NCBI GenBank assembly: GCA_017499595.2
Contig: CM039008.1
Span: 248,001-312,000, forward strand
Source of the DNA: Psilocybe cubensis
Taxonomy: Eukaryota
Length of the DNA: 64,000 nt
Direction: 5' to 3'
Each line of letters starts with the position of its first letter. Positions within the stretch are counted from its first letter, which is position 1. Below, piece by piece: positions 22,135 through 44,019 of this stretch. A model generated the notes under the pieces. The model saw only the letters and a program-made list of their open reading frames with translations. It was not told the origin of the DNA and did not search any database. Both the position numbers and the translations under genes were made by a program.

Positions 22135-22150
22135 TGTAGATGAAGACGAG

Positions 22151-22176
22151 GCTGAGTGCTGAGTGCTGAGTGCTGA
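22151..22176. repeat. 7-bp tandem repeat (GCTGAGT) x about 3.7 in the 5' leader of crystallin-like copy 1
   Basis: gctgagtgctgagtgctgagtgctga read directly. Confidence 0.75.
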
Positions 22177-23478
22177 TCTGAAGTTACGCTCAACGCTCGT
22201 GACCGCCCTTTTATGTGTCGGATGAACAAGTATAGGCACGTTTTGGGTATAGTCTTGAGGAGTGTTATTCGCGTCCAGATACATGAAAGTGTGTTCGGCA
22301 GTCGGCGCATACTTGGGCGGGGAATTTAGCATATTAACGCTCCATCATCGTTCGGGAAGAAGACCATTTACGAAACATGAGTATTTGACTACCTCTGCAT
22401 CTTTTATCTATCGTTTGTGATATTGTCCAGGCAAGTATACTGGGATCATAGTTGTCTCTATCAAATAGGTCACAATTTTTGAACTTTGTGAACAACTAAA
22501 GAATCAATAATTAAACTATTATGCGTTGATTTATAATCACACATTGCAAACCTCTGTGGGTATGCATACGCGTCCGTGGCTCCCGATATGTGGCACCTTC
22601 GAACTTATTGGGAAGCGAGAAGGCTCTTCGGTACCCTTTCTATTAATTCTAATGGTGACGTCAATGTCATGGAAAAAGACACCGGTGAACCGCGAGTTAA
22701 TTACAGTTGGCAGGAAGATTCTAGCTCAATGACAGAAGTTATATGACTATTAACTTATCAGACTATTTCAGAAGTTTCTATCATTTGAAAACACGCGAAA
22801 GGACTAATTACATTCTCTTTGGATTTCTTCGTTACTTGATAGAATAAATGTCTGACTGAGGGTAAAGATATTAATTCAATTTCAAAACACGGTACTATAG
22901 CACAATTACTTGGATCTTTGCACAGATGTTTTTATTTTCTATTTCATGACTTTAATCTGCTATTCATGCAAATAATGCATTGTAGAGAATGAGAAAACTT
23001 TCTTTTGGAACGGATGAAATGATCGTGAAAAAATTCAAAGTCCATTGATTGATTTGTCAGCTTTTTTAAGTTGACACTCCGATTGAAAAATATATTCCCA
23101 CGGTGACTTGTTGTCAACTTCTGTCGTCGCAATCTCGAACGATAGCCATTTCTTTTCCGTTGCTTCTTGTTACAGTCGCAGATGCATATTACCAAATCAA
23201 GACATGAGACACACTGGCCTTGGACCTTGGACCATCTGGACTGAGGGCCGATAACGATGAATTCGACACCGCTCACGCGTAATCGAGGAAGAGGGAAAGA
23301 AGATGATATTCGTTGTGGGAGGTCCCCGAAGTCTGTGAGCAGCTCATTTACTCTTCCCAGACTATACATACCGCTATCCTACTTCCCATTGTTTCGTTTG
23401 CTGCCCGTTCTTTACCCATTTCATCACAGGTTAACCCGCCCCCGTGTTCTCCTATCCACACCTCATACCCTCCTCGAT

Positions 23479-24102
23479 ATGTCACATCCCCAAACGGTTC
23501 TTGCATAGCTCCATAACCTTATAGCATATTTATGGCCTCACGTTTAGTCCCACGGCTTTTCAGTCTCGACTTCCTGCACATCCGCTCCGCTCCCTCAGCA
23601 ACAGTTTCTTCTCCCCGCGAACCCTTTTCAAAGTGCCAAAAGACACCGGAAGACGCACCTCAGCATAGAGAATTGTGGTGAGCTTTCTATCTCCTCCCAT
23701 GCGCCAACCCCTCTTTCTGTCGTCAACCCTGCCCAAAGTACAAGCCACAGTTCCCTCCAAACGACGACGACGACGACACCTACTCTCCGGCGCACCCAAG
23801 ATTCTCCGAACAACGGTACTTTACCGACATTTGGCGCTGCTAGATAAGAACTCACAGGCAACAGACACTCTCCCTTTACTTTTCTCTTGATTTATCTATG
23901 GTCCTGCTACTCCCAGCCTCCTCCCTCCATGGCCACATCACAGCCTCAGCCTCAAATCCAACTCCCCAAGGTTCACATTTGGTCTTGTATTTTCTTATGT
24001 ATGGTCTCACTTCTTAAACACCTATTTCAGTGGTCCCAAAGAGTTTACTATATCGTATACCTTCTACAAGTCGCACAAGGAACGAGAGACGGAAGTGGGT
24101 GA
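23479..24102 (+). CDS. Hypothetical Ser/Pro/Thr-rich protein or gene remnant
   Basis: An open frame MSHPQT|SHGFSVSTS...|...PQIQLPK|WSQRVYY can be built with three plausible introns; no family recognised. Confidence 0.25.
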
Positions 24103-24874
24103 AGAGGTACAATCTAGGTATAAATCAACTCAACTTGAAGCATATTTTCTTCGAGCTTAGAGAGCTTATTTGCAGCAACACGACAGCTCAGGCTTGTACC
24201 GGTGCGACTGGAGTCAGGGGGACGTTGATATGTTGGTTAATGTTATCGAATGAGCAGTCGTAGTCGACGTTGGACGGGACAATACATGAGTCATACTTCT
24301 AAATATGTATGTAATTCTTACTCAATGCTCTATTTAATTGTCAAAGACGATGGCGATGGATGTATGCCATGTCTAGATCTTCTCGCTTCTACTATATGTT
24401 CAGCTGATTCCGCATATACTATCCAGAATACATGCACAGTCATAATTGACTCAGCTCTCGAGGTCGACGCGCACCATGTCACCATCTCGTATACCTGTGC
24501 CGGGAAGGCCATTCAAATAAAGGGCGGTGCTATTCTTTTTTGGTGCACCTTACGAGAACCTGAGACGCGCGGAGGAGCCGGCACGGTCTCTGATTGTGCG
24601 AGTGCAGCTGAGGTGGAGGATCACGTTCGTACGAGTGTATGTTCAGCAATATCCAATGTGAGTAAATGTAGTAATCTGTCCATCCTGCGCAATACTAACA
24701 TCACATTGTTGTATCAAAAGCAATCATACGTCCCGGGGAATCTGACAATCCAAATATTTTGTGCATTTATTCTGGCAAGCAATACGCCTAACTTTCAAGA
24801 ATAGCTATATGCACTCTAGAGAATCATCGCCTGAGCAGAACTGCATGGGTTTCTTTCTCGCATAGCCACCTTTA

Positions 24875-25387
24875 TTAATTCGATTTGAATTGGGGGATAC
24901 ATCTATACGAAACGATGTGCTCTCTAAACGGCTCTGGCACGATTGGGACGTCTCCCTGAAGATAGACAAATTGCCCTTCACCGTCCGGTTTGCTGTATTT
25001 TTTATTCGTCCAATTCAGCTATGAGAAGAAATACCACTCCATAAATCTGACGACTCACTTGTAGAACGCGCAGAGCCAGCCCGAGCTGATCTCAACGCTG
25101 ACAACGCCTTCCTGGTACTCCTCCGGAAGGGTGTCGACGATGGGGTCAATGAAGCGTGCCCTATAAGCTCTTCCTTCGAAATTCGGTTCGTCATACATAA
25201 TAAGAATAGGATGTGTGCCCTAGCTTATGTGCCAATCGTGGTAGAGCACCACGAAGCGGGTTGGATGATGGAGGTAGGGTCTTACGGGAAGCCGGAGGCT
25301 GGTAGGTGATGCTTGGACCACTGTGGTGGTAAACAACAGCAATGCTAAGTAGGTGCATAGGCTGGTGAGATGGACAGTGGGGCGCAT
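24875..25387 (-). CDS. Small secreted beta/gamma-crystallin-like protein, copy 2
   Basis: 3 exons: signal MRPTVHLTSLCTYLALLLFTTTVVQA; LIMYDEPNFEGRAY...LPEEYQEGVVSVEISSGWLCAFY; KPDGEGQFVYLQGDVPIVPEPFREHIVSYRC. Clearly paralogous to copy 1. Confidence 0.75.
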
Positions 25388-27204
25388 TTGTCGATGTACC
25401 GGGTGTGTTGAGCTCAAGCCGCTTGGCTGCTGCGGGGACGACAGATAATCAATAATGACGGTATGATTGTTCGCTCTGCTGGATGTCGACCCCCGTTTTA
25501 TAGTTTGGGAGGACAATTACAGGTGCGCTTTGGGTATAGTCTAGCGGGCTAGCGGGTTTTGTCTTCGTTCATCATTCGGGAGTCAAAGGTGACAGGTGCA
25601 GCTATACGATTTTGGATTTCCCTGGGGCACAGCTATGCTTGCTCTTCGATAGCTCACCTCGCATCCCTCTCGACACGAACGGGATTCAGACATCCACTCA
25701 GAGATCCACAGATATAAGAGGATTCTGTATGACTGCTAATATTCACATGTCACATCAGGAACGCAAAGTTGTGTATTTATTTCGATTGCATAGTCGATGA
25801 GAAAATGCTCAAGCAGTAATTTCATCAAACTTCACTGTCCTTGTCTTGCTTTAAATCGAGAGATTCAGTGCCATTCTCACTCTACAGTCACCCAGTCAGC
25901 AAATCTTTGTCCCTCCAGACAGAGACAGACAAACAGAAGAAATCATACCGATATGACCTTTGACTTCTCCACAACCTCCGCCAATGTCTTCTTCCCAACA
26001 TCCTTCCAGATTCTCCACGCAGTGAACGTGTGGCCCTGCTGGAAGATCTCTTCGACTTCCTCCAACGACCGCCCGACGGTCTCGGGGAACATGAAGAAGA
26101 TGTGGATGAAGGCGGAAAAGTTGAATGTGCCGAAGATGAAGTAGGCCTTCCATGCGATGGTGTTAAGGCCAGGCGGGACAGCAAAGGCCAAAGCTGTGTT
26201 GACTGCCCAGTTAGAGGCCTATCATTGGCTATTCAGTTGACGATTTTGAGATTCAGAGGTTAGTACTCACCGTGGCTAATGACACTGCCTTACCTCGCAC
26301 CTTCAACGAGTACTGAGATCATTTTACACAGTAAGCGTCTCAGAGAAGTCAGATGATACTCGGTGAATTTACCAGTTCCGCTGGGTACGTCCACGATACG
26401 GGTCCAATAGCCAACGCATAGCTAAGCTTCTCGGTTAGAAGAGTGTAATCCGAGTCGGCTAATATAAATAGACATGGCACCTGCAGACGAAGAGGTATGA
26501 GCAGACGATAACAGCCTTTGTCGCTGCCTCGTTCCCCTGAATTATCCAGACTGTTTTTCCTGTCGAGTCGGGAGTAGACCAGTGTCCGAACCGTCCTTGA
26601 ATCCCACCAACAAGGAACATCCAGAAACCCATCAATAAAGACCCCCATAGGAGCATGGGACGACGACCCCATTTATCGATGTAGAGGATAGCAGGTGCTA
26701 GAGATGAAAGTCGCGATAAGCCAAAATTATCTGATATGAGAAAAATCAGACAACTCGTACTTGTGAGAGCGACGTTCAGTACGTATTGAATGGACTGTTG
26801 ACATATGGTATTGGGAATTGAAGGCTAGGTGTGAGAATAGGGCGCCGACGTACCATCAGGGATTCGGGGAAAATCAGATACCACATGTAATCTGGCGTCG
26901 ACACTTATTTGTCCTTGTATGATAATATATTGATGCTATATACATTATACCATCTTATAATGTCGCATATGTGGAATCCAAATGATACCACAATTGCACT
27001 GATGATATCAGAAATATATAACCTTATATACCGCTTATACCTATGCTGCCAGCCCGATATTATAATATGATACGGAATAATGTATATACCAGTATTACAT
27101 TCTCATATACCACATGTAGCTACTTAGGATTATTTAGTAATGCCTCGGGTGGTCGCTCGAGCCTTGTAGTAGAGTACATGTTCATATTGAAAGCTACAGA
27201 CACT

Positions 27205-30200
27205 TTACAAATCATCAAAACCAAGATCGTCGTTATCACCAGTGTCATTGTCAAAGTCCTCGTTTGCCGAAAGACTATCAATATCTTCATTATCGGACTC
27301 CGAGTCATCAGACATGTCATCGGGACACCTAGGTCCATCATCTTCTGCTGCCTCAAGTTCTTCTGCAATGTCGGAAGGCTCTTCCAATTGAATTCTTCCT
27401 GCGGCTTCTTGGTGACCGATTCCAATGCCGAGATATCGAGATAGCATATCACAATCAACAAAGCTGTAAAATTGTGGTCAACACAGTGCTACACCAAACA
27501 ATTAGAAACGTACATGTTGACATAATAGTTCATCCAGTCATCAGTTTCCTGGGGAGGTCTGGCCTGAGTTGGGCCTGTTGTGTGCAATAATTCATTGGTC
27601 CGCCCATCAACAAAGGATGGAAGTAGATGACATCCACGAACAACCAAAGAAGGGTCCAAAAATCCAAACGCAAATTCATCGTCTTCTACGACAAATCCGA
27701 TTTTGGGAAGACATGCTAGTTTTCGACCAGATTTGTACCCAGGTTCTACCCCCAACCAACGTACCCACAGAAATTCCACTCGCTTTGGGCTGCAATCGCG
27801 TGATTTTGGCCCCGTGTGCTGAACATCTGCATGAAAAACACCTATCACAGACGCATACCAGAAGGGATGGGCACCTGGTTCAGTTTCTGGAGATAGCACC
27901 ATAACAAACGGATGGCTTCGTGTGCTGATGGTGTCATATGCCCGTCGCATGTCATACGTAGTATAATACGTACGCATAGTATTAACTCGAAACATTGTAT
28001 TGTTGATAAATCGAAGATTATTACGATCTTCATCATCAAAAAGAGAATCTGTGTCGTCGCCGTCAAATGTTCTTCCAGTCAATCGGCCTAGTAGGTGATT
28101 CTTGAGGAGATGCAAAAAGTTCTATAAACAGCTATATGAGCTATTAAAGTGACTTGAACACAAACAATGACTTACCTTCTTTGCAGGATCAGTATCATTT
28201 TGCATAAAAGCAAAAATAGGGACTGGCGTATTTCGTGATTTTGAGATATAGTGCGTATCTTGAAGATGCCCAGATACTGCTGCTTCTGCCCTTTCAGCCA
28301 TACAATCCTGTTGATAGGGCATTGTACTCTGCAAGGCCATCATGCGACTGTACTTTTGAGCAATCTGCTTGTTGGCATCCTTTTTGTTTGTCAATTTGTA
28401 CAATGATTTTAGTAAACGATGGGCAACTTCGCTCTGCATGATTATATTAGACGGATTGGGTACAATGCTATTCAAAACATACCAGTTGAGTTGAATAAGA
28501 ATCAGTGGTTCCAAAATTTCGAATATGTCGGACATAATCCCCCAAAAAATGAAACTTTGGTGTGTTCAGATTGAATTTCATCGAACGTCGGCTCAAAGGT
28601 GCTTTGGCCGGTGCACCATTTTCCACAGTAGATGTCTGTTTCTGTGCTTGACGACGTTGGCGTGCGGCAGTTTCTCGAGGAAGCTCAAAAGTTTCAAAAT
28701 TAGTACAAGTTACATCTCAAAACTCGCGCATTAATTTGCCAAATTCAAACGTGAGCTCGTCAAGCAATTTTAAACTCCCTTCGGTATGTATTCGCATCTT
28801 GGCCAAACCGTGCCATTCGGCCGTAGGGTACAAGAGCTTTGCGATTTGTCGATCATGTGGATCTGGAAACAGTCCTTCAAATATAGGAATAGCACACTAT
28901 AGTAGGTATTAGCATGGAATATAGATGTGTAAAATTTAAGATTCTTACTTGCAAAAGGTCTTCAAAATCGCGTGCCGCCAATTTTTTCATTTCCGATGAA
29001 TTTTTAGCAAAGTTACGTATAGTACCATTGCCAAAGGTCAAGACCTGGCGGTACCTGTCATATTTTGTATATTAATTATTAGTATTCAGGCATAGTCTGC
29101 ACACGTACCGTCTGTCTAGCTCTGTTACAAGTTCATCGGAACCCCCTCTAGCAGCATATAGTAATCTAATCAGATGAGTAAATAAGCTTTTCCAGACCCC
29201 GATTTCAAACTCATGCAGCAAATCAACGGTTAGCATATCAGATGGGTTAAAATCAAGGCCCAAACGCGCAACAAAAGCATTCTGTGACAAGCATCATTTT
29301 TTAGTTTTTAATTATTAAGAAAATATACGTACTTCTGTTGGAACACCAGAAAACGGCTTGAGGAGGCGATCAACAACTTCCGATTTTATTGAATGCCCAA
29401 GACGATAAATGGCATCGCGGGCGAGTGCAACTTGCTCGACAATGTATCTACGAACTGTTCTATTGTCAGTTCGGAGATTCTTGTCGCGTTTCAATCCAAG
29501 CTGGTCTAGCTTGGACTTTGGCACAAGACAAGTTGGACAAGGGCATAGGCCCTTATCTCTAATTGTGACCAATAGAACCCTACAACCAAGGTCCAATCAG
29601 TAAAGAACATACGGCAGCAAATAAAACCACACTTTTCTGGATAATCAGCCGAGTATGTGAATATGCGTGGATAAAATCGTCTTTCAATGCCGTCATGGCA
29701 TTTAATAACTATTCCATAACGGTATGCATGCATAAAGTCATCGTCCAATATAATCTTCCAGACACCGTGGATTAATTCGCGTCGACAATGTGTGAGCAGT
29801 TGTTGGCTTTGTGATTTCCATTTGGGGTGATTTTCCGACGCAAAATCTTTAAACGAGTCTGGAAGCTGTCGGAAAAGTAAATATAAAATCATAAGTAGAG
29901 TTATGAAGCATACGCACCGAAGGAATATATGCTAGATGATGCAATGCACCAGAGCCGGGCTGAGCACAAATATATTTAGACAAATTTCCTGCCATCACAT
30001 ATATGGGCCATCCTTTGGCATTCCCGAAATTGGTGTAGTGAGTTGCATCAGAGGCAATTTGAAGAGCAGCCACAACCTTTTCACGTTTACAATTGGGGTC
30101 GTCAGGAGGTAATGCACCACGACGCTGAATTGCTTCATTTTTGGCAAGAAAGGCATCAGAATTATAGAGTTCGGAAAAGATGCGTTCAGATTTGTTGGTA

Positions 30201-31226
30201 TGAGGGGATTGATGCCAAAGCTCAAATGGAGCATAATGCATATGCTTGGCTAGAGGACCCGTAAACATTTCAGTGATAAGAGAGGTGAAGGAGCGATGGA
30301 GAAGGCCTGGAACAAGATAAGGAAGAGGTGGACAGTGTGGGATTCCAGACGGCACCCAAATTTGTACACAGGTTTCTCGGAAATGAGCTCCAAGCCCCAA
30401 TGTAGCAATTGCCTTGTCCATTCGAGCATGCTCACGTCTAGCATCAAAACCAATCAGGTCCTGGGCATCAAAATTGGGTGCAAGTAAAACCGTATCAACA
30501 AGCTCGTTGATCTGACCAATAGACTTTGATGTTTGGCCATTATTAGCCCATTGCAGAAGGAGACGTACGGTAGGCTGAAGGTTGGATATATATGATGTGA
30601 TCCCATCCAGAATCGAGGATGATAGCTGCTTGAAGGTAGCTGGTTTGGATGCCAGGTCGTCTAGAGAAAGAAAAGAGTCGGAATCGTGATGTGGGCGTCG
30701 AGGGTAGTAGCGCCAAACACCAAACACATTGATTACAGATGTGAATCGGTCAAGAACATATAGAGTAATCCAACGTATAGCAGACAGTGGTAATGGTGGT
30801 AAAGATGAAACAGGTTCGGGCAGAGTTTGATTGTTCCTACGCGGATTTCTGTGTCGGCATGATGGGCAGCCAGACCAGGAGGGCATAGAGATCTCGCTAT
30901 ATGATACCGGGCTTGGATCGTGTGTGGAGGGGGTTGGTGAAGCGGGACAGATATCATCCATGGCACTGCTTTCCTGTGCATAAAATGGGTTGGTGCACTG
31001 TATTCACAACAAAAGTCAGGCAAGTGCAAGTATGATAGAAAAGGCTCACAATATCTCTATGTCTTTCACTGATGTGCCCGTTTGCCCAATTTCTCTTTAC
31101 TTGGCGAGAAAGTGACAGGGCCCTCTCGTTCATCTCGAGTACATGCACACACTTTGCTGCATGCTTAGATATGCTAGTTTCCCGACTATACACTGCTTTG
31201 CAAAGTGTAGCTGGGCATTTGTACAT
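27205..31226 (-). pseudogene. Plavaka transposase, multi-exon, with one premature stop
   Basis: ELYNSDAFL, SDATHYTNFGNAKGWPIY..GNLSKY, HHLAYIPSLPD, YPRIFTYSADYPEK, CPCPTC, VDLLHEFEIGVWK, AARDFEDLLQC, KFHFLGDY, FLWVRW, FGFLDPSLVVRGCHL; N-terminal CxxxxC...HxxxC. In-frame TGA at 28717-28719. Confidence 0.88.
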
Positions 31227-31624
31227 CGGTGTTCTGTTCTGGCTGCTCGCCTGAGGAGGTTTAATGCTTGAAATACGAGCAAGAAGGTAGGAACGATTTG
31301 GAAAAATGTGATAACGCGCAGTTGAGACGCGGGTCGCGCGTCACCGTCATGTGACCAAAGATGGCTGGCTGCTGCCCACCTTTTCTTTTCTGTCGCCGCT
31401 CCTTTCAACACTTTCTCTTCATTCTCTCCAGTACGACCCGCTTCCAACGGCCGAACGAAGAAACATATCACGGATTTGATGAACGTTATTCGGCATATCG
31501 TGCAGACGGTTGTAAAACATGGAGGCCAGAAAGAGAGAGATGAGGTCGCATCAGAATTGAAGGGGTTCTGGAAGAGGCAGACAACGAAAGACGAAGAAGG
31601 AACACGGGTGAACGGATGGGCAAG

Positions 31625-33170
31625 TACCCAATCCCGCCGCATCTGAACCGCGACGATCCCTCGCGGTCGTTGATGATGTTTGCCCATGCAAAGCCGCTGG
31701 GCGCGTACATGGGCTTTGCTGGCTTAAGATCCATGCGGCAAATCTGTTCGGGTACGATAAGGCCCGGTTCGACGAGCGTGTTCAGGTGCACCAGGACGGG
31801 ACCGTACAGACCTGCCCAAAGAAATCAGCTGGCAAGCCGCATCCTACCTCGCCAAACAGCTTCTCTCCACCATCGGAGACACATTCAAAGGCGCGAAGGG
31901 GATCCAGGACTGGCCTACCCTGTGTATGCGGCTAATCTCGAAATCTGTGCCGGCGAGTCGGTTGGGTGTGGTGGTGGATGTGGTGGATGGGAAGAACGAG
32001 TCGGTTGGGTGTGGTGGTGGATGAGGTGGATAGGAAGAAGTATGCAACGCTTGGGAGGAAGGAGGTGAAGCGTGAGCAGATGACGAGTGTGATTTGGACG
32101 ACGTTGTTGGGGCTGCCGATTGTTCAGCCGTATAGGAAGATTTCGACTACGGCTTTCCCTCCCAACTTTATTCACAGTCTGGATGCAACACACATGTTGC
32201 TGACTGCTATCAAATGTAATGTACGTTCTCTGTATTCAGGTCTAATTTTTACTGTTTTACTGACATGCATGGTATAGGACCGCGGGCTCACGTTTGCGTC
32301 AATCCACGACTCGTACTGGACACACGCGTGTGATATTGATACCATGTCCGAAGCAATTCGAGAGACATTTATCAGTCTTCACCAGTCTGATATTCTGAAC
32401 AAGCTGCAACAGGCCACGCCGCCTCAGGCACAGTGGAGTGACTCCCCTCGCCACCGCCTTAAGATCCCCGCGGCGAATCTGTTCGGGTACGATAAGGCCG
32501 GTTCGACGAGCGTGTTCAGTGGGCTGAGGAGCACTTTGAGCAAATGCGGGAGGCGGCGAAGAACCCGCTCGATGTACGTATTTTTTTTTCTTCTCAACCC
32601 GCATTATTTTCTCATTTTTTGTTGATGATTAGGGTATGAGATGGTGGCAAAAGGCAGACGACCCATGGCAATTCCTCGCTGCGTGCATTGAGCTCACCAA
32701 GTAAGGCTCCAACCGTTTAGTTTCCATTTAAATTTTATTACAAACTAAACAGAAACGGTAATAAACAGTTTACAAACGTTTATAAACGTTTGTAAACAGT
32801 AAGCTCGAGGGTGGCTACAAGGGCAGGCATTCAACAACGCATCATTTGTCCTAATGCGGCCGATTTGCCAAGGAAGATAATAGTCGGCACCTAATTGGTA
32901 CAAAAATGGGACCAAAACAAGAGTGCAAAATGAGTTAGTTTGGTGTAAAGAATAAAAGATGAATCATTTGATGTAATACGCACCCAATATTATCCAAAAA
33001 AGAGATATACTTAAGCACAAAAATCTGTTACCGTTTGAACCGTTTATAAACGTTTGTAAACTGTTTAGCAAGGCTTGTAAACTAAACGAAACGGTAAATG
33101 GTATATACCGTTTACAAACGATAAACAAACGAAATGGTTGGAGCCTTATCACCAAGGCACACGATGCACC
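31625..33170 (+). pseudogene. RPO41: Captured fragments of the mitochondrial T7-type RNA polymerase gene (RPO41-like)
   Basis: [115 protein letters not shown]; frameshifts, deletions and retained introns. Confidence 0.88.
32702..33148. mobile_element. hAT-like MITE (447 bp)
   Basis: TIR TAAGGCTCCAACC(G/A)TTT at both ends; 8-bp TSD TCACCAAG at 32694-32701 and 33149-33156; internal AAACGTTT-rich subterminal repeats. Confidence 0.88.
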
Positions 33171-33699
33171 AGGGGACGTGTAATGGACGGCTTTATGTCG
33201 CAGTAAACGCAGGACCAAGACCCCTTTTACGTGCCAAGTGACGAGCGCACTCATCCGTATGCTATTGACTCGACTCGACAGTATACACCTCGGGTGCCAT
33301 CGCACACTTACATAGCTGGGCCGTCGACAATGTCTCTTGTGCCATCACGGATGTGTCTGAGTTGAGTAGTGCTTTGTCCTCGTCGTCCGTGACGAGTAGG
33401 GGCGGTCAATTGTGTGAGTCGCTTCATGTTTGCTTTTGTTACTGCTAGTGCGAAGCTGAATGACCAACTCCGACACCAGGTCCACCAGGTCCTCGTCCTT
33501 GCTGGATGCGCAGAAGTCTTGTAAGCGCAGCGCCGCCTCTGCTCACTAGGTGGTAGTACACAAACTGTTGTATTTGGTTGCGCTGGACGGTGGTGAGTAA
33601 TTTGCTTCTCAAATTTCCAAATTCAACATTGTCTCATTCCAAAGCGTGGTCAGGCTACATTCCCTACAAAGTCCACCACCAAAACCAAAAGAGACAAAG

Positions 33700-34379
33700 T
33701 TTCGAGGGACTCGCATTTCTACAAGGTGGGGAAGTGCCTGTGTCACAGCGGATAGGCGATTCGGACGTTGTAAGTGCTTCTTTATTATGTCTTTTCAACA
33801 CTTGTTTGTTTACTTGGTACGTATCCAGCTACACAGTGCAATCAATTATTGTTCTGTTGGCCTTGTGCCACCTTTGCTGCTGGCTCATCCACCACCTCAC
33901 AACTGCCACTGCCCTTGTTATTGATCTCGTTAAGTTGAGTGTTTGGTTTGTCGTGTCCGATGTCTGAATTAATTTGCGTACAGATCATTGTTGAGGCCTC
34001 AACTGCCCTGGCCGCCATTTTTCGCTGCGCCCGCTGTGTGATAAAATTTTGCCATTCGGCCTCCCGCTCAGCAGCAGCAGCGCGTTCTTTTGCCCTTTCC
34101 TCTGCAGTCTGCAGAGTATGCTTTAGCGGCAATAACAAAATTCTGCAGATCAAAGGCACGTACCTTTTTTATCTTGACTACTTTTGGTTCATACTGACAC
34201 CAGCATTCATCTGATTCCGATTCACATTCAGAATGGCTGCATTCAACCTCAGATTCTTCGGAGGAGCTGTCCGTGTCGACCCGAGCTGGTTGTGGTGCTG
34301 GCTTTTCCGGAGTATCAGCAATAAATGCTAATGGTATTCCGACTATTGTAGGTGGTGCTTCGTTGGTATTTTCTAGCAT
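33700..34379 (-). pseudogene. Degenerate hypothetical gene inside the transposon (acidic and coiled-coil segments)
   Basis: MLENTNEAPP...DSSSEESEVECSHSECESESDEC, then AEERAKERAAAAEREAEWQNFITQRAQRK in another frame; splice-like signals are present but downstream frames are interrupted. Confidence 0.3.
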
Positions 34380-34803
34380 AGTAGCTGAAGAGTTTATAGC
34401 TGTAGCTGTTGTAGAACTACAGAAGCAGTAGGTTTGAGTTAAAAGAACATTTCAGCCGCTGTTCTTTAAATTTCTGTTGAAAAAGGCATATAATTACATT
34501 ATAATGTGCATATCATGTGCTAGTGTGACAGTCACTGTTTGTTTCGTGTTTTCCAGGCCGTCATTCTCTTGTTCTCAACCACACACTTTCCAACTAGCAT
34601 TCTTCGCATTTGTCAATGCTGGCTCAGGAATATTCTAGCCAGGACATACACTGATCAGTGTTGGCAATGCAGGGCATGCACGTTCCTCAAAATGTAGCCA
34701 TTTGTACCCCTTTTCATCCGCTCGTTTTTTGATTTTGCCTCATTTTTCTGCCGTGCATGCTTTTCCCCCTCTAATAAGGCCAAGGTATGCATAACCTTTC
34801 TAT

Positions 34804-36745
34804 ATGTCTTCTTACTCGTACCAACCTGGTGGCGCATTTCATCCAGGTGCACAAGGATCTTCGTCCCATGGCCGTGTCACTGGCACACAAGAACAACCTA
34901 ATGTGGTGACTCAGCATGGCCATAATGCACCTACCTATCCAGTGGGATTTAATGGTGGGCCTCCGTATACACAGAATGAGCGCAATCATGCACTGGGTGG
35001 AGGTATGTTTGAAGTCACACTTCTCATATATCTTGATTTACTACTTAGATTTAGGTATGGCAACTTTGGATAACTCATTCTATCCAAGTCATTCCCAGCC
35101 TCAGATGCCAGCATCCACAACCGCTTCAACACCTGGCTATCAGGCACGATATGGCCATCACCTTGAACCCAATGCGTCATCTTCATCAATGTCATCCGAC
35201 ACCACTTCTCAGAATGAAATCTCAGCCCCTGACACTTCAACACTTCAGACACAGCTGGCCTTTTATAAGCGTCGGATTGAAGAGTATGAAATGGGCGATG
35301 AAGAGTGGTCCCGGAAGTCTAAAAAGGCAAAGACAAGGTGAATTTGTTGATAACCAAACTTTCTGTTGCAGTCATAGCATTCATCATTATAACTTTTAGG
35401 GAGAAGCCCCCCGAGCGATGCTTTTGAAAGGCTGTCAGCCTTTATGTGAGCGCACAAGAACTGTATCGAGACTGGAACAATGATTATTTAGAAAGGAATG
35501 GTATGGCTTTGGCAAAGTTTAGGGATGTTGACACCAAACGAAAGTATGTTTCTTTTTTGTTTATATTATTAATACTTATATTCTCTTTTGATTCTAGCTT
35601 CGATCGTAATGTTTCTAGCTTCAATAAGCTCTTAGAATACATTCCAAGGCTTCAAATGATGATAGACGGAGATGCTAGCAGCCAAGAGATAAGGGAATAT
35701 CTACACAAGGTATGTGATTATTTGATGAAATGTGAATGACTAAATGTCATTTTTCTACAGATTGATCAGGGTGGAAATGCAGCCCGCTCAGACGATTGCA
35801 ACCACATCAAGGAATTCCTTAGAGACTTCCTCAATGCCGAGCACCGCCCTGAGGTTTTGTTTACAAAAGAACGGACTGGACGTGGTGTGCAGAATGACAT
35901 AACCGGTAAATATCTTTGTCCGATTCATTACAACTGGGATGACCCCAGGTAAGTTGCTTATTTTTTTCTTGTACTCTATCTAAGATTATTGATTAGTGTT
36001 CGCACACGTATCCGTGCGGGTGATATTATGGATCCAAAATTCCCAATTTTTGTCAATTATTATCTTCGGTTTTTGTATCCTGATGGATATGAGCTGCCGC
36101 CTAATGGTAGAGTCAAGCATTTGTTTTTACGAAGTCTGATCTTGGTCAAGGTATGTACTCTACTTTTGTTTCTTTCTAATTCTTATATTAGTCTGTCTAG
36201 GTATGGTGCTATATTTTTACCTCACCAGGATCAGCCAAAGCCATTATCAAAAATCCTAATGGCGGACCTCCTATTCGAAATCGAGCCTACGCTCCATCAA
36301 CCAAATCGACTAAAACAAATGTTGCCCGCTTGATAGAAATGACCAGTGTTACAGCCCATAGCATTGCCTATACTGTTATCATGGTATGTTTACTTCTTTT
36401 GTCTTTCGCATTCACAGCATCTTAAGTTTCAATATAGACGGGCTTCAACCTTACGGATGCTTTGTTTTGGACCTCGAAATACAATAACTTCAACTTCCAT
36501 GCACTCTATGATTTCATCGTGGACTATTTCCGGGAATCAACACCAGAATCCGAGGATCTTCTGCGATGGTGGAATAGGTACGAGGTTCTATGATAATTTT
36601 CTATTTTAGCTTAATATATTCTATTAGCATGGTTTTTCCTAATGGTGTCGGCGCTGCTATTGACAGAACGGAAGCATCTACAAATGCTTCTTATTCACTT
36701 CTAGAAGCTTCTCGTGCTACCGCTTCAACTACTTTTTCAACTTAA
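34804..36745 (+). CDS. Multi-exon DUF6698-like protein carried by the transposon
   Basis: GNAARSDD, RGVQNDITGKYLCPIHYNWDDP, FLRSLILVKVWCYIFTSPGSA, NVARLIEMTSVTAHSIAY, LYDFIVDYF and LLRWWNSMVF match my recollection of this Agaricomycete TE-associated family. Confidence 0.7.
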
Positions 36746-36784
36746 TTCTTCTTATCTTGTAATCGACCAGTAGTTGCTCGCTCG

Positions 36785-37325
36785 CACGGCGGGCAAAAGT
36801 GCTGACTAGTCAGCCTGGGAGTTGGTCTGACCAGTCACGTGACCATATCGTGACGCGTTCCGTGACGAATCAACTGACCAGTCAGGAGAGGTCACACAAA
36901 TGTTGTCACGCTGGTTAGTATTGGTAAATGAGTTCAGTAACATAAGATTAAATGGGAATAAACCATTGTCTTCCGAAGCACTTTTACTGAGGAAAAGCAA
37001 TGAATGAATTGGATATTTCTTGTGTTTGGTTGAAATTTGGTCATTATTCAAACAAATGGACAATTAATAGATGTTGTACCAAAATTGTGTCGATGCATGC
37101 TAGATATCCTCACCAAGATTCATGAAAGAATCAAATAATGTAAGTCTGGGGCATAGAAAAGAGATCCTCTGTTCTACAATCAATGAGCGGAATTACAGAA
37201 ACTTAGCAGTGTGACAATAAATGTGTGACAGCTACATGACTAGTCAGGTGACTAGTCAGCACGCTGGTCAGGTGACTGATCAGACCAACTCCCAGGCTGA
37301 CTAGTCAGCACTTTTGCCCGCCGTG
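36785..37325. mobile_element. CACTA-like MITE (541 bp)
   Basis: TIR CACGGCGGGCAAAAGTGCTGACTAGTCAGCCTGGGAGTTGGTCTGA (46 bp perfect, about 61 bp with 2 mismatches); 3-bp TSD TCG. Confidence 0.9.
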
Positions 37326-39489
37326 TCGAAATGTCATTTTTTTAATCTGGTCATCTGATTTTTCAATCACGTGCTGTCTGTCAACCAACCAGTAAAACGC
37401 CAGATAACGGGCATCAGTTGTGGTAAGCTAGCTGAAGGTATAATGTAAATCTAGTGGTATATGTTATATATTCTAAGATATGGATACTATAATGAGGTAT
37501 AACTATATTCCTTCCTGTAGCATCATGTCAGAATTATATCAACATTATACCACAAAATACCATATGCCATCAAATTATCATTTTTTGCAGTTCAGTTTAA
37601 GGCATGGTATAATATTATACCACCCCGAGACCACATATACCACATTACCCCTACTTACAGTGCTTATATTGATCATATCATACTTTCCCCGAATCCCTGA
37701 TGACATCAGCGACCAGGATGGTCCGGGTTCCCGTTATCCCTGCACTTTTGAAGACATAGACAACGTAGTACCTGCATTGAATAGTTAATTCTGATACATA
37801 GTGGGAAGGGAAGAATCACGTACATCATCACGCTCATTCCAGAAAGTTGAGACCACATTCTCAGACTCATGCCAAGCATGACACGCCTGGGGTTATTTCC
37901 TTTAAAAAGATCCATGTATGACTTGGCGCCCTCCGCACGCTCGAGATAAACCTAGCAAAAGTTGTATTAGGAAGGAAGATGTATTTTAAAAGCTTCTCTG
38001 CCCTGACCTGCTGTCTGATTTCCTCGAACTCGAGGACCACAAGCTCGGCTTCCTTGTTTCCCTTACCTTGCAAGTCGGCAAGAACTTGCAGGGCTTCTTC
38101 TTTACTACAAATCCATCAGCTTGGAATTTACATTTTTACAGACATATAAAGACGTACTAACCATGATCACAAAGCCACCGAGGGCTTTTGGGGAATGCAG
38201 TCATCCCCAGGCTTAAAATTATCGCTGGAATCATCTGTAGACCCCATGGGAGCCGGAAAGAGGCGACTCCATGAATGTAAGAGCACCCAAATTGGACAAA
38301 ATATTGGATGAGCATCCCCCAGGTAATTGACCATTGCTGCAAGGATACGATGCGACCCCTAATGGAGGGTGCAGTAGTTTCGGACTGATAAATGGGAACC
38401 ACTGCACTGGAGAGGCCAACTGAGAAGCCTGATATAATGTGACCGACCACGAGCATGCCACGGTCCTTATAAATGGTGTATTTCTAGTCATTTTCAAACC
38501 TACAAAGCGAAAAAGATGATACGTACCACCAATGCACATTGAAGAATTGACCCAATAATCCAGAAGATACCTGCAAGAATGATTGTCTTTTTTCTTCCTA
38601 ACCTATCTGCCAGATGCATCACAGCAAGGGATCCGATAAATGATCCTGCTGGCATGGCGGCGACAATGCCTCCCTGAGCAGCTGGACTGGGCTAGTCATA
38701 GATAACATGTGGGTTAGTATGTATCTTAGAAATCCAACTACTCCAAAATCCAACTCACAAATTTAAACGTCTCGAGATATGAAGGATTCTTTTGTTCGTA
38801 TCTCGGAATCGATAATACGATCATAAATCTGGGTAAGACACCCTTACCGTGAGGACTCCGGACATTGATGTAATATCTAGCCCGGCCAAACTACCACCCA
38901 GACACGCAAAGGACCCCACAATGTACTATGAACTACTGTTTATTATGGGATAATAGACAGAAATCAAGTGTATTCGTACCGGATTGGAGGCGATTCTGGC
39001 ATTGTATGTGGTGAACGTCTCAAATAAAATCAAAAGTTAGTCCAGAAGAGAAAGTCAAGTGTATAGCCTGTGCTAACCCCCATAGTTGCGCCGTGTCTTG
39101 AAGACAAAATCTACCAAAGAAATATTGTGGTGAGATATCCACTTGTCCTCCATGGGTCCATAATTTATAGCCATCTTTCTTCGAACCGAGTGCAGGTATG
39201 TGTCTATTTCTGTTAGGCCGTTGAAGGCCGTTTGATCTCCGAAATTAAACTTAAAGGTCAGCAGATCGTATCACTGGTGAGAGGAAAGATGGATTAGACT
39301 GCGCAGATGTGTTTAAGGTTATTCTCGTTCTTCGAAAGCCATAAACATGAGAAACCTTGGTGTTCCATTTTCTTTGTGCATGTACTCGAGCAGGAGTGTG
39401 CCGTCTGGAGGCACAGAACCTCAGTGAAATGCATCAGAATCATTCTCTTCATGGAGAATGAGTATCAAAGACTCTCCCCAGCTGCGCCC

Positions 39490-39824
39490 CCAAGGAAGTT
39501 TTGGGAAATTCATAGAGGAGCAACCAAGCGCGACCAGCATACCAACAGCAAGGTTTCGAGTACAATATTGTCATACCGAAGCTGTTGATGGTGCAACAGA
39601 CGGGTTTAGTAGTGATATATATATACACCGCCAACGAGGGCGGTGACGTCCTGAACGACGATGCCCAAAAGACCGAAGATCTTGGAAAAGACATCACTGT
39701 TGGCGGTGCCGGTGCTGTTACAGCATTGAAGACCACCGGTGTTGCATTGGCTGGCGGGGGATCCTGTGGCGGCAGCAAGGGTAGTCCCAAGTGCGACGGA
39801 AGTAGCAAGGGTCTTGAATTGCAT
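39490..39824 (-). pseudogene. Class I hydrophobin with an internal deletion
   Basis: Signal peptide, QCNTGGLQCCNST...LLGIVVQDVTALVG, then out-of-frame KPVCCTINSF and LVALGCS; the C4-C5 segment is absent and a stop follows VGGVYIYHY. Confidence 0.78.
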
Positions 39825-40302
39825 GTTTGAGTATCATAACTGAGATGTGAGGATTGTTCGAGCTGATGAAAGACTAACGAACCCAGACGCCTCTTTGTAC
39901 TTTGGAAGAGGTCAGGTTCGCACTATGTTGTGTTGTTTTTTGTGTGGGCAGGGACACATGCAATTTCCTTTGGCGCTGAAGCGCTGATCTGTCGTACTTA
40001 ATTCGTTTATTATTGGACTCGGTTTATCTCGCAAAAGCTGAAAATTGCCATATAAAATGGGGCTCTTCTTTCTGTTGTGGAGTTCAAAGTAATGGGTTGA
40101 GAACGAAAATACCCCGTTTCACCGGCAGCGTACAAGGCCGATGAGGTAGTACGGGTAGTAAATAAACATATAGCATATGTAGTCAGTGTTTGCGTCATCC
40201 CACTGGTAACCTTCAGACAGCGTGTCAATGGACCAGAAATTGTTCTAGGACAATGTGATATATCTATTGTATATAATTGTAAAATTAAAGATGTAAGTAC
40301 AA

Positions 40303-41839
40303 TTACTGAGTGAAGAAGTAGTAGGTATACGTGAGCATCATTCCCTCTCTATCTGCACTGTTTTCAAACACTGCGTTCTTTATCGTGCTGAAGATCCACT
40401 CCTGGGAGTAGGGTGCAAACCCTGTTTGTCCTTCCTCCGTGTTGAGTTTGGGATGCGCCGTCATATTCATCGTATTGCGCAAATCACGATCTACGGCATC
40501 GATCTGGCCAGAAATTGACACAACGGCCGCTTGAGTGGGTACAGATTGTGTCCCAAGGATCTTTCCCTGATTCTCGGAACACGATTCGACCAAAATACGG
40601 ATATAAATGTCCGCTACAGACAACAGCGCCTCGTTTCTCTACAGAAAAAAAAATCAAAGGATATGATTATTTGGCCACAAATAATGCTGTTCGGTACTAA
40701 TTGGAGTAGATAGACTCACTTTTGTATTAACATTGTGGACTTCCCTGCCCTGAGACCTTTGCTCCTCTGTGGCAGACTCTACTCTGCGAACAGAATCATC
40801 GCCTGACTTCGATACCAATTCTTGCCTGTCTGACGGCCCAAAGACATTTTGAAATTTGAAGTTAGTCAATTTAGTTACGTGCTCTTCATTGACTTCTTCA
40901 AATCTGGTGATATAGCGATGGGAGTAGATATGACTATCGGTCTCGCAATCGAGGTCTTCATTGACCACTTGCAGCTCGAGCTCGGTAGGATCAAATGAAT
41001 CATAATCAATTTGACCGGTTAAGAGTCCGTGCATCTCGACGCCATTCTCCATCAAGCTAACCGTTAAGGCTGCGTCCTAATGTAAAGGTCGTCAACACGA
41101 TCTTGTTATAGTTGGCAAAAAATAGTCAATTTCATACCTCTCTTCTTAAAACCTCTAAGCGAAATTGATGACGGAGCGGGCGGTAGATATTTGGGAGTGT
41201 ATTTAGTTCTGGAAAACAATTTTTTGTCAGAAGATCAAATGGCTAATGGACATTCACTTTGTCTAATCATACCTTCTATAGTTACCAGCCCCGGTTTGTA
41301 CTTCAGATTCTTGGACATATTGGACAGATCCTCCAAAAGCCTTTTGCGCAAACCAAACTGCTCCAGAGTTCCCTTGTAATCGTTTATCCATTTGGAATTT
41401 CGATACTTGGAATATATTTTGGAGGGATGTGTGATGAGCAAATCATAAAATCGAGTAGATGCATCTGTAGATTGGTGGGTTGGCAAGAAGTGATCAAGAC
41501 AAGTGTAAATAAGCGACTCAAATCTTGCTATGATACTACTTAAAACTCGAACGTACCTTCAGCGATTTTAATGTGCTTGCAATGATCTACCGAGGGTAAA
41601 TTATCCAATGCCCCTTGGTCACCTCGAGAAATTGATGGGAAAGTGCCTATGAGTCGTGTCATTTCATTGACATGATTCAATACAGCCCCGATGATTTTTT
41701 CAATCTGTGTGTCGCTGGATTCGGATATCCTATGCCGCTTGATCCTTGACAAACAGGAGCCCCCAACAAAGAAGTGAAGATGAAGTCTTGGAGTTTTCTG
41801 GTTGGAAGTTGTTGCTTTCTCACTTGGTTGTCGATTCAT
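40303..41839 (-). CDS. Orphan hypothetical protein, 5 exons
   Basis: Frame stays open across four canonical introns (GTACGT, GTATGA, GTATGA, GTGAGT donors) from MNRQPSEK to YYFFTQ*. Confidence 0.6.
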
Positions 41840-41865
41840 GACAGAAACTGGGGGCGTCGCACTTC

Positions 41866-41901
41866 AACCACTGGCAGGTATTTAACCACTGGCAGGTATT
41901 T
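41866..41901. repeat. 18-bp direct tandem duplication in the 5' leader
   Basis: AACCACTGGCAGGTATTT x2. Confidence 0.8.
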
Positions 41902-42202
41902 GAGCCTGTGAATATATAAACGGGTGCATTCAAGTCTCGTCGCTTTCCCAGCTCTTATCTGATTGTTCATGGAATCGATAGACACCGACATTTTCCCTCA
42001 CCAATCAGTTCGTATTGATTATCGATGACCCATGCATCATTTGTCCACCCCATGACATGAACAGTGCATGATCCAGATTGATATTTGGCTTTCACAACTT
42101 CTTTGGACGCGTGTGGTCCTCGCCATTACGCGACTCGACAAATAGATCACATAGGATTGCTCAAAGCCATCTTTCATATACTGACTACAAGAATTTGAAT
42201 AC

Positions 42203-43770: not shown

Positions 43771-44019
43771 GAAAGAAAGAGGGACTCAAAGACTTTGAAT
43801 TTCAAAACCGGAGTCTGATCGACGAAGTCAACCCTGGGCCCGTTCGGTCATGTGACTTAATTTTTTTTTCCACACTTGCGGCGTTGAACGTCTTGCCGAC
43901 ATTGACTGCAACGTCGAGAATAGGCCAATTGACACCCCGATATCCACAAACCCTGGAGTTATAGCATCTGGGACACTTTCATGACTATACCTTCACATTG
44001 ACTCCATAATTTGTGACCA

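Follow-up and report, generated by a model that had tools for sequence, protein, structure and literature searches.

What is the 10.8-kb segment that lies between two inverted repeats in this 64,000-nucleotide stretch of the Psilocybe cubensis genome (the window), and what does the second of its two divergent genes do for it? To our knowledge, the biology of Plavaka elements beyond their transposase is almost uncharted. Yet Plavaka and its relatives contribute substantially to the DNA transposons of mushroom genomes; in Marasmius oreades, Plavaka and KDZ together account for roughly half of them (PMC8290104). Our reading, to which we give a probability of roughly three in four, is that this segment represents a single cut-and-paste element of the PlavakaB lineage in P. 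cubensis, with the layout and the account of a DUF6698 gene developed below. Coordinates are collected in Table 1.

Table 1. Features of the element, its nested insertions and the interrupted host gene, in window coordinates.
Feature	Position	Strand	Details or basis
Host MFS sugar-transporter gene, 3' part	25943..26853	-	Sugar_tr profile 296-452
TSD, left copy, AC	26852..26853	.	sequence; 2 letters common to both sides at the empty-site joint
Whole PlavakaB-type element	26854..37702	.	10,849 bp; TIRs and empty-site joint
Left TIR	26854..26872	+	19 bp exact, starts CATCA
Left subterminal zone	26878..27113	.	ATACCAC x3
Plavaka transposase gene, multi-exon	27205..30961	-	Pfam PF18759, tblastn mapping, locus tags
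Premature TGA, transposase	28717..28719	-	position of Arg661 in P0002
Copy-specific centre (cargo)	31384..33869	.	contigs of other copies cease matching at 31383 and 33870
Mitochondrial-type single-subunit RNA polymerase gene fragment	31936..32625	+	PF00940
Nested MITE, 447 bp	32702..33148	.	22-nt TIR; 8-bp TSD TCACCAAG at 32694-32701 and 33149-33156
DUF6698 gene	34804..36745	+	9 exons, 8 introns, 506 codons
Premature TGA, DUF6698 gene	35425..35427	+	codon 170; Arg in P0001
Nested MITE, 541 bp	36785..37325	.	61-nt TIRs (97%), termini CAC..GTG, 3-bp TSD TCG
Right subterminal zone	37454..37643	.	ATACCAC x4, 1 of them inverted
Right TIR	37684..37702	-	exact copy of left TIR, finishes TGATG
TSD, right copy, AC	37703..37704	.	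sequence and empty-site joint
Host sugar-transporter gene, 5' part	37705..38691	-	Sugar_tr profile 47-201

The original prediction delimited the segment by 19-bp terminal inverted repeats (TIRs) and a 2-bp target site duplication (TSD), and both are borne out. The TIR, CATCAGGGATTCGGGGAAA, has exactly 2 exact matches in the 64-kb window, one on each strand at the two ends, against a chance expectation of 0.02 and with 0 of 100 shuffles reaching 2; the inverted repeat can be extended to 27 nt (89%). Within the element, the heptamer ATACCAC is confined to the subterminal zones, with none of its 7 copies farther than about 260 bp from an end and 0 across the 9.5-kb interior. The dinucleotide AC stands on both sides, a match expected by chance in 1 of 16 cases, so that it is the empty site that establishes the TSD. 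Four public sequence runs from a list of 14, as contigs or raw reads, were compared with the stretch (X1, X7, X8 and X11). The precise empty allele, joining 26851 to 37703, is present in other strains as had been proposed for a check: in 1 contig of X7 and 1 contig of X8, both reaching 255 letters or more past the joint in either direction, and in 24 raw reads of X11 (20 starts). This joint omits 10,851 bases, equal to the element plus one AC, and 2 letters fit either side. The filled left junction is bridged in X1 by one contig that extends 42 letters, and at the right junction of X1, 29 element letters are covered, below the 31 required for bridging. The 10.8-kb segment is one mobile element that entered the locus whole, as 10,849 bp. 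The insertion is recent, and other strains still have the site empty.

The flanks hold the two parts of an MFS sugar-transporter gene, an insertion inside a host gene that is absent from the earlier description of the locus. By translation alone, the exon of the 5' part appears to stop at 37705, directly at the insertion, and the element seems to have targeted the GT splice donor of a transporter intron; hence the sugar-transporter gene is probably disabled by the insertion.

The leftward gene had been called a Plavaka transposase, and Pfam agrees. PF18759 matches minus-strand open reading frames within 29506-31003 at E = 2.5e-13 and 8.5e-9, scoring 50.4 and 35.5 bits against a gathering cut-off of 26.3. 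A full-length relative, the 1090-aa P. cubensis Plavaka protein P0002, scores 113 bits and is colinear with the window from 30961 to 27208 by tblastn. The named P. cubensis reference annotates the transposase as two models, of 660 aa and 376 aa, and the 660-aa model (P0210) terminates exactly at the premature TGA. Across 34 transposase sequences, C440 and C443 of a CxxC motif are nearly invariant, reading CPCPTC in the window translation; D305, D406 and E532 are conserved, with the triad assigned by eye, and we did not find the H(3-4)H motif. PlavakaB as published has termini 5'-CATCA..TGATG-3' with a TSD of 2 or 3 bp (PMC12730594). The window element shares with this lineage, placed in the CMCT clade by the same paper, the PF18759 domain, the CATCA..TGATG termini, a 2-bp TSD, an Agaricales host and the CxxC motif, and by its termini and TSD it fits a new member of the known PlavakaB lineage. 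The premise that Plavaka elements are known mostly from the transposase domain is outdated, complete elements with TIRs and TSDs being already in print (PMC12730594; PMC8290104).

The rightward multi-exon gene is likewise as described from the sequence at the outset. PF20414 (DUF6698) matches at 35740-35952 and 36201-36425, and the 506-aa P. cubensis protein P0001 maps across the whole gene through 8 GT..AG introns, with 487 of 506 residues identical. Each of the two element genes is interrupted by a single TGA at a codon that encodes Arg in relatives, which would leave this copy unable to move itself. The premature TGAs are an addition to the earlier description, which had passed over both.

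The main point of interest is whether the DUF6698 gene belongs with the transposase or merely sits beside it here. Within P. cubensis, where sister copies were inferred from read and contig depth and from locus tags, all 5 tagged DUF6698 genes, the window's included, are separated by 3 locus tags from a Plavaka gene, and both genes of each pair are on a contig of equal length. The five loci belong to two diverged families (54% and 37% identity); the four besides the window bear the tags 0006149-52, 0007528-31, 0011700-03 and 0000147-50. In one sister copy, X7 record 11, an identical right arm runs from 33870 to the same TIR and is set in another flank, and it follows that the DUF6698 gene is a part of this element family. 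Counting the other way, X7 has the DUF6698 arm at 95% identity or more, and transposase sequence at that identity is almost absent.

A scan of environmental contigs, with a profile built from a 9-sequence alignment, gave 79 DUF6698 loci in 57 clusters. Among loci with at least 3.5 kb of sequence on the side in question, Plavaka is found upstream in 17 of 28 and downstream in 1 of 10 (Fisher p = 0.009), or by cluster in 15 of 24 versus 1 of 10. The upstream pairs are on opposite strands in 16 of 17 cases (binomial p = 0.0003), and the spacing between the divergent genes is 190-2800 bp in 16 of the 17. At the other 11 loci of the 28 (by cluster, 9 of 24), no Plavaka lies within 3.5-9.8 kb upstream. 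Four loci (L006-L008 and L025) have a FunK1-type kinase as their divergent upstream neighbour in place of Plavaka, and at L024 a FunK1 kinase sits between Plavaka and DUF6698. The tags D9615_002822 and D9615_008829 of T. constricta are not adjacent, in a set of sparse representatives.

Four other CATCA-bounded units hold both genes. In L039 the contig is the element; L062 and L061 have TSDs of GA and TT, and L066, 1 of the 3 testable environmental units, has no matching TSD and a different gene order. The termini of the both-gene units are related, on the pattern CATCA-N5-T(T/C)G..GGAAA, and subterminal 7-mers in these four are at most weakly end-enriched. Transposases of paired units share only 37-78% identity. 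Co-divergence of the two proteins gives a Pearson coefficient of 0.59 and a Spearman of 0.28 over 78 pairs of 13 units, with 68 of 2000 permutations reaching the observed value, a weak Mantel signal that rests on rough projected alignments. The pairing of transposase and DUF6698 is general in mushroom-forming fungi, though not universal. These are the places where an independent insertion or a want of linkage to Plavaka could have come to light, and linkage is what the 5 tagged loci, 17 of the 28 informative environmental ones and the four CATCA units exhibit. Of the two-component reading offered originally, the recurrence of the pairing in the element family is thus upheld; the identification of the second component with TnpA, taken up below, lacks support.

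Between the two genes, the host-derived cargo that had been proposed is present in a centre unshared by sister copies, as marked by loose contig ends at 31383 and 33870 in X1 and again in X7 record 11. The RNA polymerase fragment corresponds approximately to residues 1000-1134 of yeast mitochondrial Rpo41. It consists of two exon pieces with an intron-like stretch, and part of its interior is deleted. A piece of 63 nt is out of place and stands twice, at 31723-31785 and 32458-32519. The interval 31544-31741 was tried as a further Rpo41 piece and rejected, the PDB sequence search returning only spurious protein A repeats; Pfam found nothing on 31544-32065. Two nested MITEs, which the earlier description of the locus does not list, are present as well. 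The 447-bp one, in the centre, is hAT-like and high-copy, with a joint from 32693 to 33149 that has 8 letters in common and a depth 5- to 9-fold higher. The 541-bp one, in the right arm, is CACTA-like and also high-copy, with joints from 36781 to 37326 in X1 and X11 and a higher depth.

The name 'Pack-Plavaka' had been suggested for this arrangement. Pack-MULE and Pack-CACTA elements are non-autonomous and have no transposase gene. They do carry host gene fragments between their TIRs in rearranged pieces, as here, but this copy keeps both genes, disabled by point mutations only. The label is a misfit because the transposase gene missing from Pack elements is present here, full-length and broken by one nonsense codon.

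The pieces can be assembled as follows. The element inserted as a 10,849-bp unit and duplicated a 2-bp AC target; the transposase presumably binds the ends at CATCA, perhaps also at the subterminal ATACCAC repeats, and cuts with a 2-bp stagger. The standard layout of the lineage pairs a DDE transposase gene with a DUF6698 gene, the two diverging across a short shared intergenic region, and in this copy the central region has been enlarged to 3.8 kb by rearranged mitochondrial RNA polymerase pieces and the hAT-like MITE. The copy could now move only if intact sister copies supplied the proteins.

As to what the DUF6698 protein is, the family is large, with 675 representatives at E ≤ 0.001 spanning several hundred 50%-identity clusters, and a literature search found no mention of 'DUF6698' or 'PF20414'. 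A Pfam scan of P0001 returns PF20414 only, with no TnpA-type, dioxygenase or Myb/SANT family. Structure prediction for this gene product, a check put forward with the original prediction, gives confident models that are almost wholly helical by DSSP, the core, about residues 240-475 of the 506, reaching a pLDDT of 88.6 when folded alone. Neither the full model nor the core has a Foldseek match to the PDB at E ≤ 0.001, a BFVD search with the model found no match, and the wide VIA search matched no solved fold, with a best Z of 4.1 (3.2 for the core alone). P0001 has a basic cluster resembling a nuclear localization signal after its long helix, and a basic cluster is found in 58 of 82 family members. 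There is no nearly invariant His among 82 or 89 aligned members, and no enzyme-like motif or fold was recognised. A complex prediction of transposase 1-640 with DUF6698 160-506 scored 0.00, run without controls and speaking neither for nor against binding. On balance we favor the view that this protein serves as an accessory factor, helical, nuclear and encoded by the element, which would be kept for aiding propagation of the element.

Accessory genes have been described in other Plavaka elements. The one in print for PlavakaB, known from Agaricus bisporus and Gymnopus confluens, encodes a TET/JBP dioxygenase of the PE type (PMC12730594), whereas here it is the all-helical and unrelated DUF6698; no DUF6698-type second gene is mentioned in the main text of that publication, and bioRxiv 10.1101/2025.02.11.637652 gives TET/JBP as the only accessory gene known in basidiomycete Plavaka. 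The dioxygenase fold of the TET-positive elements is a beta-rich double-stranded helix with an HxE..H motif, and DUF6698 has neither. We considered DUF6698 as a distant member of the PE-type TET/JBP family of PMC12730594, and the all-helical model rules this out. Giant Plavaka elements of red algae, 17-19 kb long, carry the accessory genes PAG1-3 (bioRxiv 10.1101/2025.02.11.637652). They likewise keep conserved accessory genes beside the transposase, and PAG1 is, in that preprint, also of no known function, but they have three such genes in different hosts where the 10.8-kb element here has one.

One alternative to an accessory factor is that DUF6698 is a long-term passenger outside transposition, acting on the host side, for instance in anti-silencing or kinase signalling, and able to live outside Plavaka. 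The 9 of 24 informative clusters without upstream Plavaka would agree with this, as would the FunK1 pairings, the L024 arrangement and the fusion of some relatives to other domains by Pfam (an alpha-kinase fragment in P0193, a MYND finger in P0098). The published accessory genes, TET/JBP of fungi and PAG2 and PAG3 of red algae, modify chromatin or DNA and are not cofactors of transposition, which also points this way (PMC12730594; bioRxiv 10.1101/2025.02.11.637652). Against a passenger stand the fixed divergent position and short spacing, maintained as for a core component across transposases as distant as those of the paired units, and the want of any recognised enzyme-like motif or fold. We regard the passenger as a possible but doubtful explanation.

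Somewhat less favored is the proposal made for this locus originally, that DUF6698 is the functional counterpart of maize TnpA, binding subterminal repeats, joining the ends and being required along with the transposase. The conserved position of DUF6698 beside the transposase in many elements is what such a protein would have, and so are the restriction of ATACCAC to the subterminal zones and the basic clusters. Several weak VIA rows over residues 170-239 are helix-turn-helix DNA-binding domains (DnaA domain IV at Z = 4.1, 3.6 and 3.5; sigma region 4 at Z = 3.4), although these are far under the tool's meaningful level and too weak for use. Opposed to the proposal are the Pfam result of DUF6698 and nothing else, a near-neutral pI (6.8 for the protein and 7.8 for the Pfam domain, thus not basic), the low best Z of a confidently folded core, and the at most weak end-enrichment of 7-mers in the four other TIR-bounded units. 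A confident all-helical model without a solved-fold match makes a TnpA-like role possible rather than probable. The comparison with maize En/Spm (CACTA) runs in both directions. The two share the broad transposase clade, two element proteins, short subterminal repeats and possible host fragments, but En/Spm has CACTA termini and a 3-bp TSD in place of CATCA and 2 bp, and its second protein arises by alternative splicing, whereas DUF6698 has its own exons in a separate divergent gene on the opposite strand and is no splice variant of the transposase transcript. With no TnpA Pfam family, no DNA-binding fold match, a near-neutral protein and a separate gene, the equation with TnpA is not supported as it was put. 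PIF/Harbinger elements encode a transposase and a Myb-like DNA-binding protein, the second protein being needed in trans, and have a 3-bp TSD. Having also two separate genes in one TIR-bounded unit, they are architecturally the nearest analogue, but their transposase superfamily is unrelated and their second protein has a recognisable Myb/SANT domain, which DUF6698 does not.

That the DUF6698 gene or right arm came by an independent insertion or rearrangement, making the 10.8-kb unit a chance composite, has in its favor the mosaic look of the region, whose centre is copy-specific and which contains two nested MITEs, but it is highly improbable given an empty allele from which precisely the stretch between the outer TIR ends and one copy of the TSD are missing, the absence of a second TIR pair or TSD around the DUF6698 gene, a sister copy with the same arm running from 33870 to the same terminus, and the pairing at 4 other P. 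cubensis loci and in the four other TIR-bounded units.

Returning to DUF6698 as an accessory factor, the leading specific guess, by analogy with TnpA or the Harbinger Myb-like protein, is that it may bind the ends or recruit the transposase, which we hold to be unlikely in either form, and the second guess, rated a little lower still, is that it protects the element from silencing. A wider joint reading, which we put forward only tentatively, would make DUF6698 an unrecognised, novel-fold second component of PlavakaB, required for mobility or survival across mushroom-forming fungi, and the intergenic region a site of gene capture. FunK1-type kinases are expanded in Agaricomycetes. If the joint reading is true, host sequences are picked up and spread, from fragments such as the RNA polymerase to whole genes such as the FunK1 of L024, and the elements may feed the expansion of these kinases.

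The conserved partner gene, with its large family, confident model and no solved fold, is a handle on how Plavaka elements work, and the Pfam family DUF6698 gains a genomic context. For P. cubensis itself, a fungus in wide cultivation, the insertion differs between strains and can serve directly as a natural marker; lying in a sugar-transporter gene, it may also underlie a difference between strains.

The ends of the element, a 10,849-bp PlavakaB-type transposon at 26854-37702, are marked by the 19-base sequence CATCAGGGATTCGGGGAAA, which has exactly two occurrences within the 64-kb window, where 0.02 would be expected by chance and none of 100 shuffles reached two. The inverted match of the ends extends to 27 nt at 89% identity, and AC directly flanks the element at both ends. 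Since a 2-base match is little proof alone, the empty site was sought by comparing four of the fourteen public sequencing runs listed for 22000-31999 (X1, X7, X8 and X11, the last as raw reads) with window positions 22000-41999. X7 and X8 each yield one contig (3596 and 4021 letters) that runs from 24909 to 26851 and then continues at 37703, skipping 10,851 bases with two letters compatible with either side, and the same 26851 to 37703 joint is present in 24 raw reads of X11 with 20 different starts. X1 has the filled left junction, in a contig that crosses over from the flank and covers the first 42 letters of the element; at its right end a contig holds just 29 element letters, which is below the bridging count. 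The insertion is therefore present in one of the four runs compared and absent in three. The skipped 10,851 bases correspond to one AC together with the 10,849-bp element. This confirms the boundaries, the 2-bp target site duplication (TSD) and mobility as a single unit: the whole segment moved as one unit, with a 2-bp duplication. The terminal inverted repeats (TIRs) and TSD of the original prediction are thus borne out, and other strains do carry the empty site. Within the element, all 7 copies of the motif ATACCAC lie no more than about 260 bp from an end, with none in the 9.5-kb interior.

The insertion falls in a sugar-transporter gene, with PF00083 matching minus-strand ORFs on either side. 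When the flanks are joined in silico, an open exon frame runs to 37705 and is followed directly by GTACGT. Judging by its translation and a motif typical of transporters, the duplicated AC would be the GT of this putative GTACGT splice donor, and empty-site strains would keep the transporter gene whole. Elsewhere in the window, a long minus-strand ORF with TPR_10/TPR-S repeats adjoins a CHAT protease-like domain ORF (12964-16555), a layout similar to that of NLR-like or caspase-like immune genes in fungi. There is also a DEAD/Helicase_C gene (44017-46813, plus), a weak RNase H fragment slightly below the Pfam cut-off that is possibly a retroelement remnant (54350-55159, minus), and an ATG4-type Peptidase_C54 gene whose N-terminal ORF is unusually long (60095-63482, minus).

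Features of the element, its insertion site and the environmental loci (L numbers, metagenome contigs)
Feature	Position	Strand	Details
PF00083, profile 296-452	25943-26824	-	left of element
PF00083, profile 47-201	38157-38691	-	right of element
Interrupted MFS sugar-transporter gene	25943-26853 + 37705-38691	-	PF00083
Left TIR	26854-26872	+	exact 19-base match
Right TIR	37684-37702	-	exact 19-base match
Premature TGA, transposase exon	28717-28719	-	Arg661 in P0002
Premature TGA, DUF6698, codon 170	35425-35427	+	Arg in P0001
RNA polymerase fragment	31936-32625		PF00940; yeast mitochondrial RNA polymerase residues about 1000-1134
Nested MITE 1, 447 bp	32702-33148		22-nt TIRs, 8-bp TSD TCACCAAG
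Nested MITE 2, 541 bp	36785-37325		61-nt TIRs, CAC..GTG termini, 3-bp TSD TCG
FunK1-type kinase gene (PF17667)	L024:6852-8171		divergent upstream of DUF6698
FunK1-type kinase gene (PF17667)	L025:3764-5071		divergent upstream of DUF6698
FunK1-type kinase gene (PF17667)	L008:3953-5395		divergent upstream of DUF6698
Unit L039			both genes; contig starts and stops exactly at termini
Unit L062			both genes between CATCA..TGATG; TSD GA
Unit L061			both genes between CATCA..TGATG; TSD TT
Unit L066			22-nt TIR without matching TSD; genes in tandem order

Both predicted genes were recovered, the leftward Plavaka transposase and the rightward multi-exon DUF6698-like gene. PF18759, the Plavaka transposase family, matches minus-strand ORFs within 29506-31003, and a word-indexed search gave 53 full-length relatives, every one with PF18759. 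The nearest is P0002, a 1090-aa P. cubensis transposase at 94% identity, colinear with the window from 30961 to 27208 in six segments with short introns between. The reference P. cubensis annotates this transposase as two models, and the 660-aa one stops precisely at the premature TGA. PF20414 (DUF6698) matches the plus strand at 35740-35952 and 36201-36425, and P0001, a 506-aa P. cubensis protein, maps onto 34804-36745 of that strand. Eight GT..AG introns, each 48-62 nt long, interrupt the window frame of 506 codons, which shares 487 of 506 residues with P0001; the second TGA is among the 19 differences, and the reference model at this locus, with 493 aa, bypasses it. Cluster look-ups and mapping place the window at locus tags JR316_0011261 to JR316_0011265. 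Each TGA looks like one that C-to-T mutation of a CGA codon would produce. X7 and X11 also contain a sister copy from which 49 bp (36088-36136) of DUF6698 exon 6 are missing; it must be frameshifted, so that DUF6698 decay is not confined to the window copy.

Sister-copy contigs cease matching at 31383 and 33870 (loose ends in X1, and a contig in X7), so 31384-33869 is specific to the window copy. The host-derived cargo that had been proposed here stands at the level of gene family, PF00940 of mitochondrial RNA polymerase, but it is scrambled and non-coding. The match contains a gap of ~35 residues and an intron-like stretch with a stop, and a 63-nt piece, whose translation weakly resembles Rpo41 775-789, is present twice (31723-31785 and 32458-32519). 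In insertion-free runs, a contig at single-copy depth matches a small part of 31338-32671, which would fit a parent locus of the cargo elsewhere in the genome. There is also a 43-bp tandem duplication of 95% identity at 31954-32039, for which 23 X11 reads have a single unit (joint 31953 to 31997). The 447-bp nested MITE looks hAT-like, and in each of the four runs its depth exceeds that of the flanks 5- to 9-fold, which indicates a high-copy family; the 541-bp MITE looks EnSpm/CACTA-like and is likewise high copy. Each is cleanly absent from sister copies, by joints in reads and contigs.

Four lines of evidence place the DUF6698 gene in the element family. A contig of the insertion-free run X7 carries the right arm, beginning at 33870 and including the DUF6698 gene, as far as the terminus shared with the window copy at 37702/3, and continues into 253 letters of another flank. 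In the reference P. cubensis, where two DUF6698 clusters were looked up, all five tagged DUF6698 genes, one of them that of the window, have a Plavaka gene of the corresponding cluster at a distance of three locus tags, the members of each pair being on a contig of equal length (0011265 with 0011262, 0006152 with 0006149, 0007531 with 0007528, 0011700 with 0011703, and 0000147 with 0000150). The two families have 54% transposase identity and 37% DUF6698 identity. Metagenome contigs scanned with a 9-sequence DUF6698 alignment gave 79 loci (57 clusters at 90% nucleotide identity), and a search of these with 53 Plavaka proteins found a match of at least 60 bits at 21. At 28 loci the contig extends 3.5 kb or more upstream of the DUF6698 match, and 17 of these have Plavaka upstream; the other 51 loci are not in this count, and three of them have a Plavaka match where the contig ends upstream. 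Of the 10 loci whose contig extends 3.5 kb or more downstream, 1 has Plavaka on that side (Fisher p = 0.009; by cluster, 15/24 versus 1/10). The upstream Plavaka is on the opposite strand in 16 of 17 (p = 0.0003), and the spacing between matches is 190-2800 bp in all of the 17 except one. Four environmental contigs hold both genes inside CATCA..TGATG termini, so that the pairing in one TIR-bounded unit is found elsewhere as well; these termini are similar to one another and to those of the window (CATCA-N5-T(T/C)G..GGAAA). Across 13 units, the pairwise identities of the two proteins correlate with a Pearson coefficient of 0.59 and a Spearman coefficient of 0.28, the observed value being reached in 68 of 2000 permutations, which is a modest signal from rough alignments.

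The proposed co-occurrence holds at those 17 informative loci and fails at 11 of the 28 (9 of 24 clusters), where the 53 queries found no Plavaka upstream. A FunK1-type kinase takes the divergent upstream position at L006-L008 and L025. At L024, such a kinase is flanked by the DUF6698 gene on one side and a distant Plavaka gene on the other, as though it were cargo, so the central region also bears whole genes in some units. Three database proteins (P0098, P0193 and P0200) are annotated with DUF6698 and a MYND finger, an alpha-kinase fragment or a zinc-finger-like N-terminus, which may represent true fusions or else gene models that were merged. In X7 the DUF6698 arm is present, yet transposase sequence of at least 95% identity is nearly absent. 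These cases together indicate that DUF6698 genes also exist outside recognizable autonomous elements, perhaps as remnants, as non-autonomous derivatives or as domesticated copies.

The DUF6698 family is large, a search among 1.84 billion giving 675 representatives at E ≤ 0.001; of 20 proteins looked up, the 14 named DUF6698 proteins all come from mushroom-forming fungi. In the AlphaFold model of P0001, residues 1-125 are disordered, then come a long helix and a basic cluster, and the body is helical and modelled with confidence; the core of a short natural member folded alone has a pLDDT of 88.6 and a pTM of 0.83. Foldseek finds no solved structure at E ≤ 0.001 for the P0001 model or the core, VIA finds no solved-structure match among 48,161 chains (best Z 4.1 and 3.2), and BFVD has no match to the DUF6698 model. 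A distant PE-type TET/JBP dioxygenase is ruled out, because the models are nearly all helix and aligned members have no conserved His. The protein is near neutral (pI 6.8), and a basic cluster is present in 58 of 82 members. A role like that of TnpA, as originally suggested, or like that of the Harbinger Myb-like protein is a guess, one that would fit the layout and the subterminal repeats.

In the available text of Kojima (PMC12730594), PlavakaB is defined by CATCA..TGATG termini and 2-3 bp duplications, and the window element has both. Other PlavakaB elements described there have the distant PE-type TET/JBP dioxygenase, and the window element has the helical DUF6698 instead. Plavaka TIRs were characterized earlier by Hiltunen et al. 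(PMC8290104), so the statement that Plavaka is mostly described from the transposase domain alone does not stand, as far as the text of these two papers goes. A red-alga preprint, in its available portion, lists three Plavaka accessory genes and gives TET/JBP as the only one known for basidiomycete Plavaka (10.1101/2025.02.11.637652). A literature search found no paper on DUF6698 or PF20414, and the PMC12730594 supplements on TET-negative families may already show a second ORF. The element belongs to a known lineage and is ordinary within it, with well-defined limits and recent activity, and the window copy is now disabled by one stop codon per gene. What is modestly new is that PlavakaB transposases are regularly partnered by a DUF6698 gene, whose product has no known fold.
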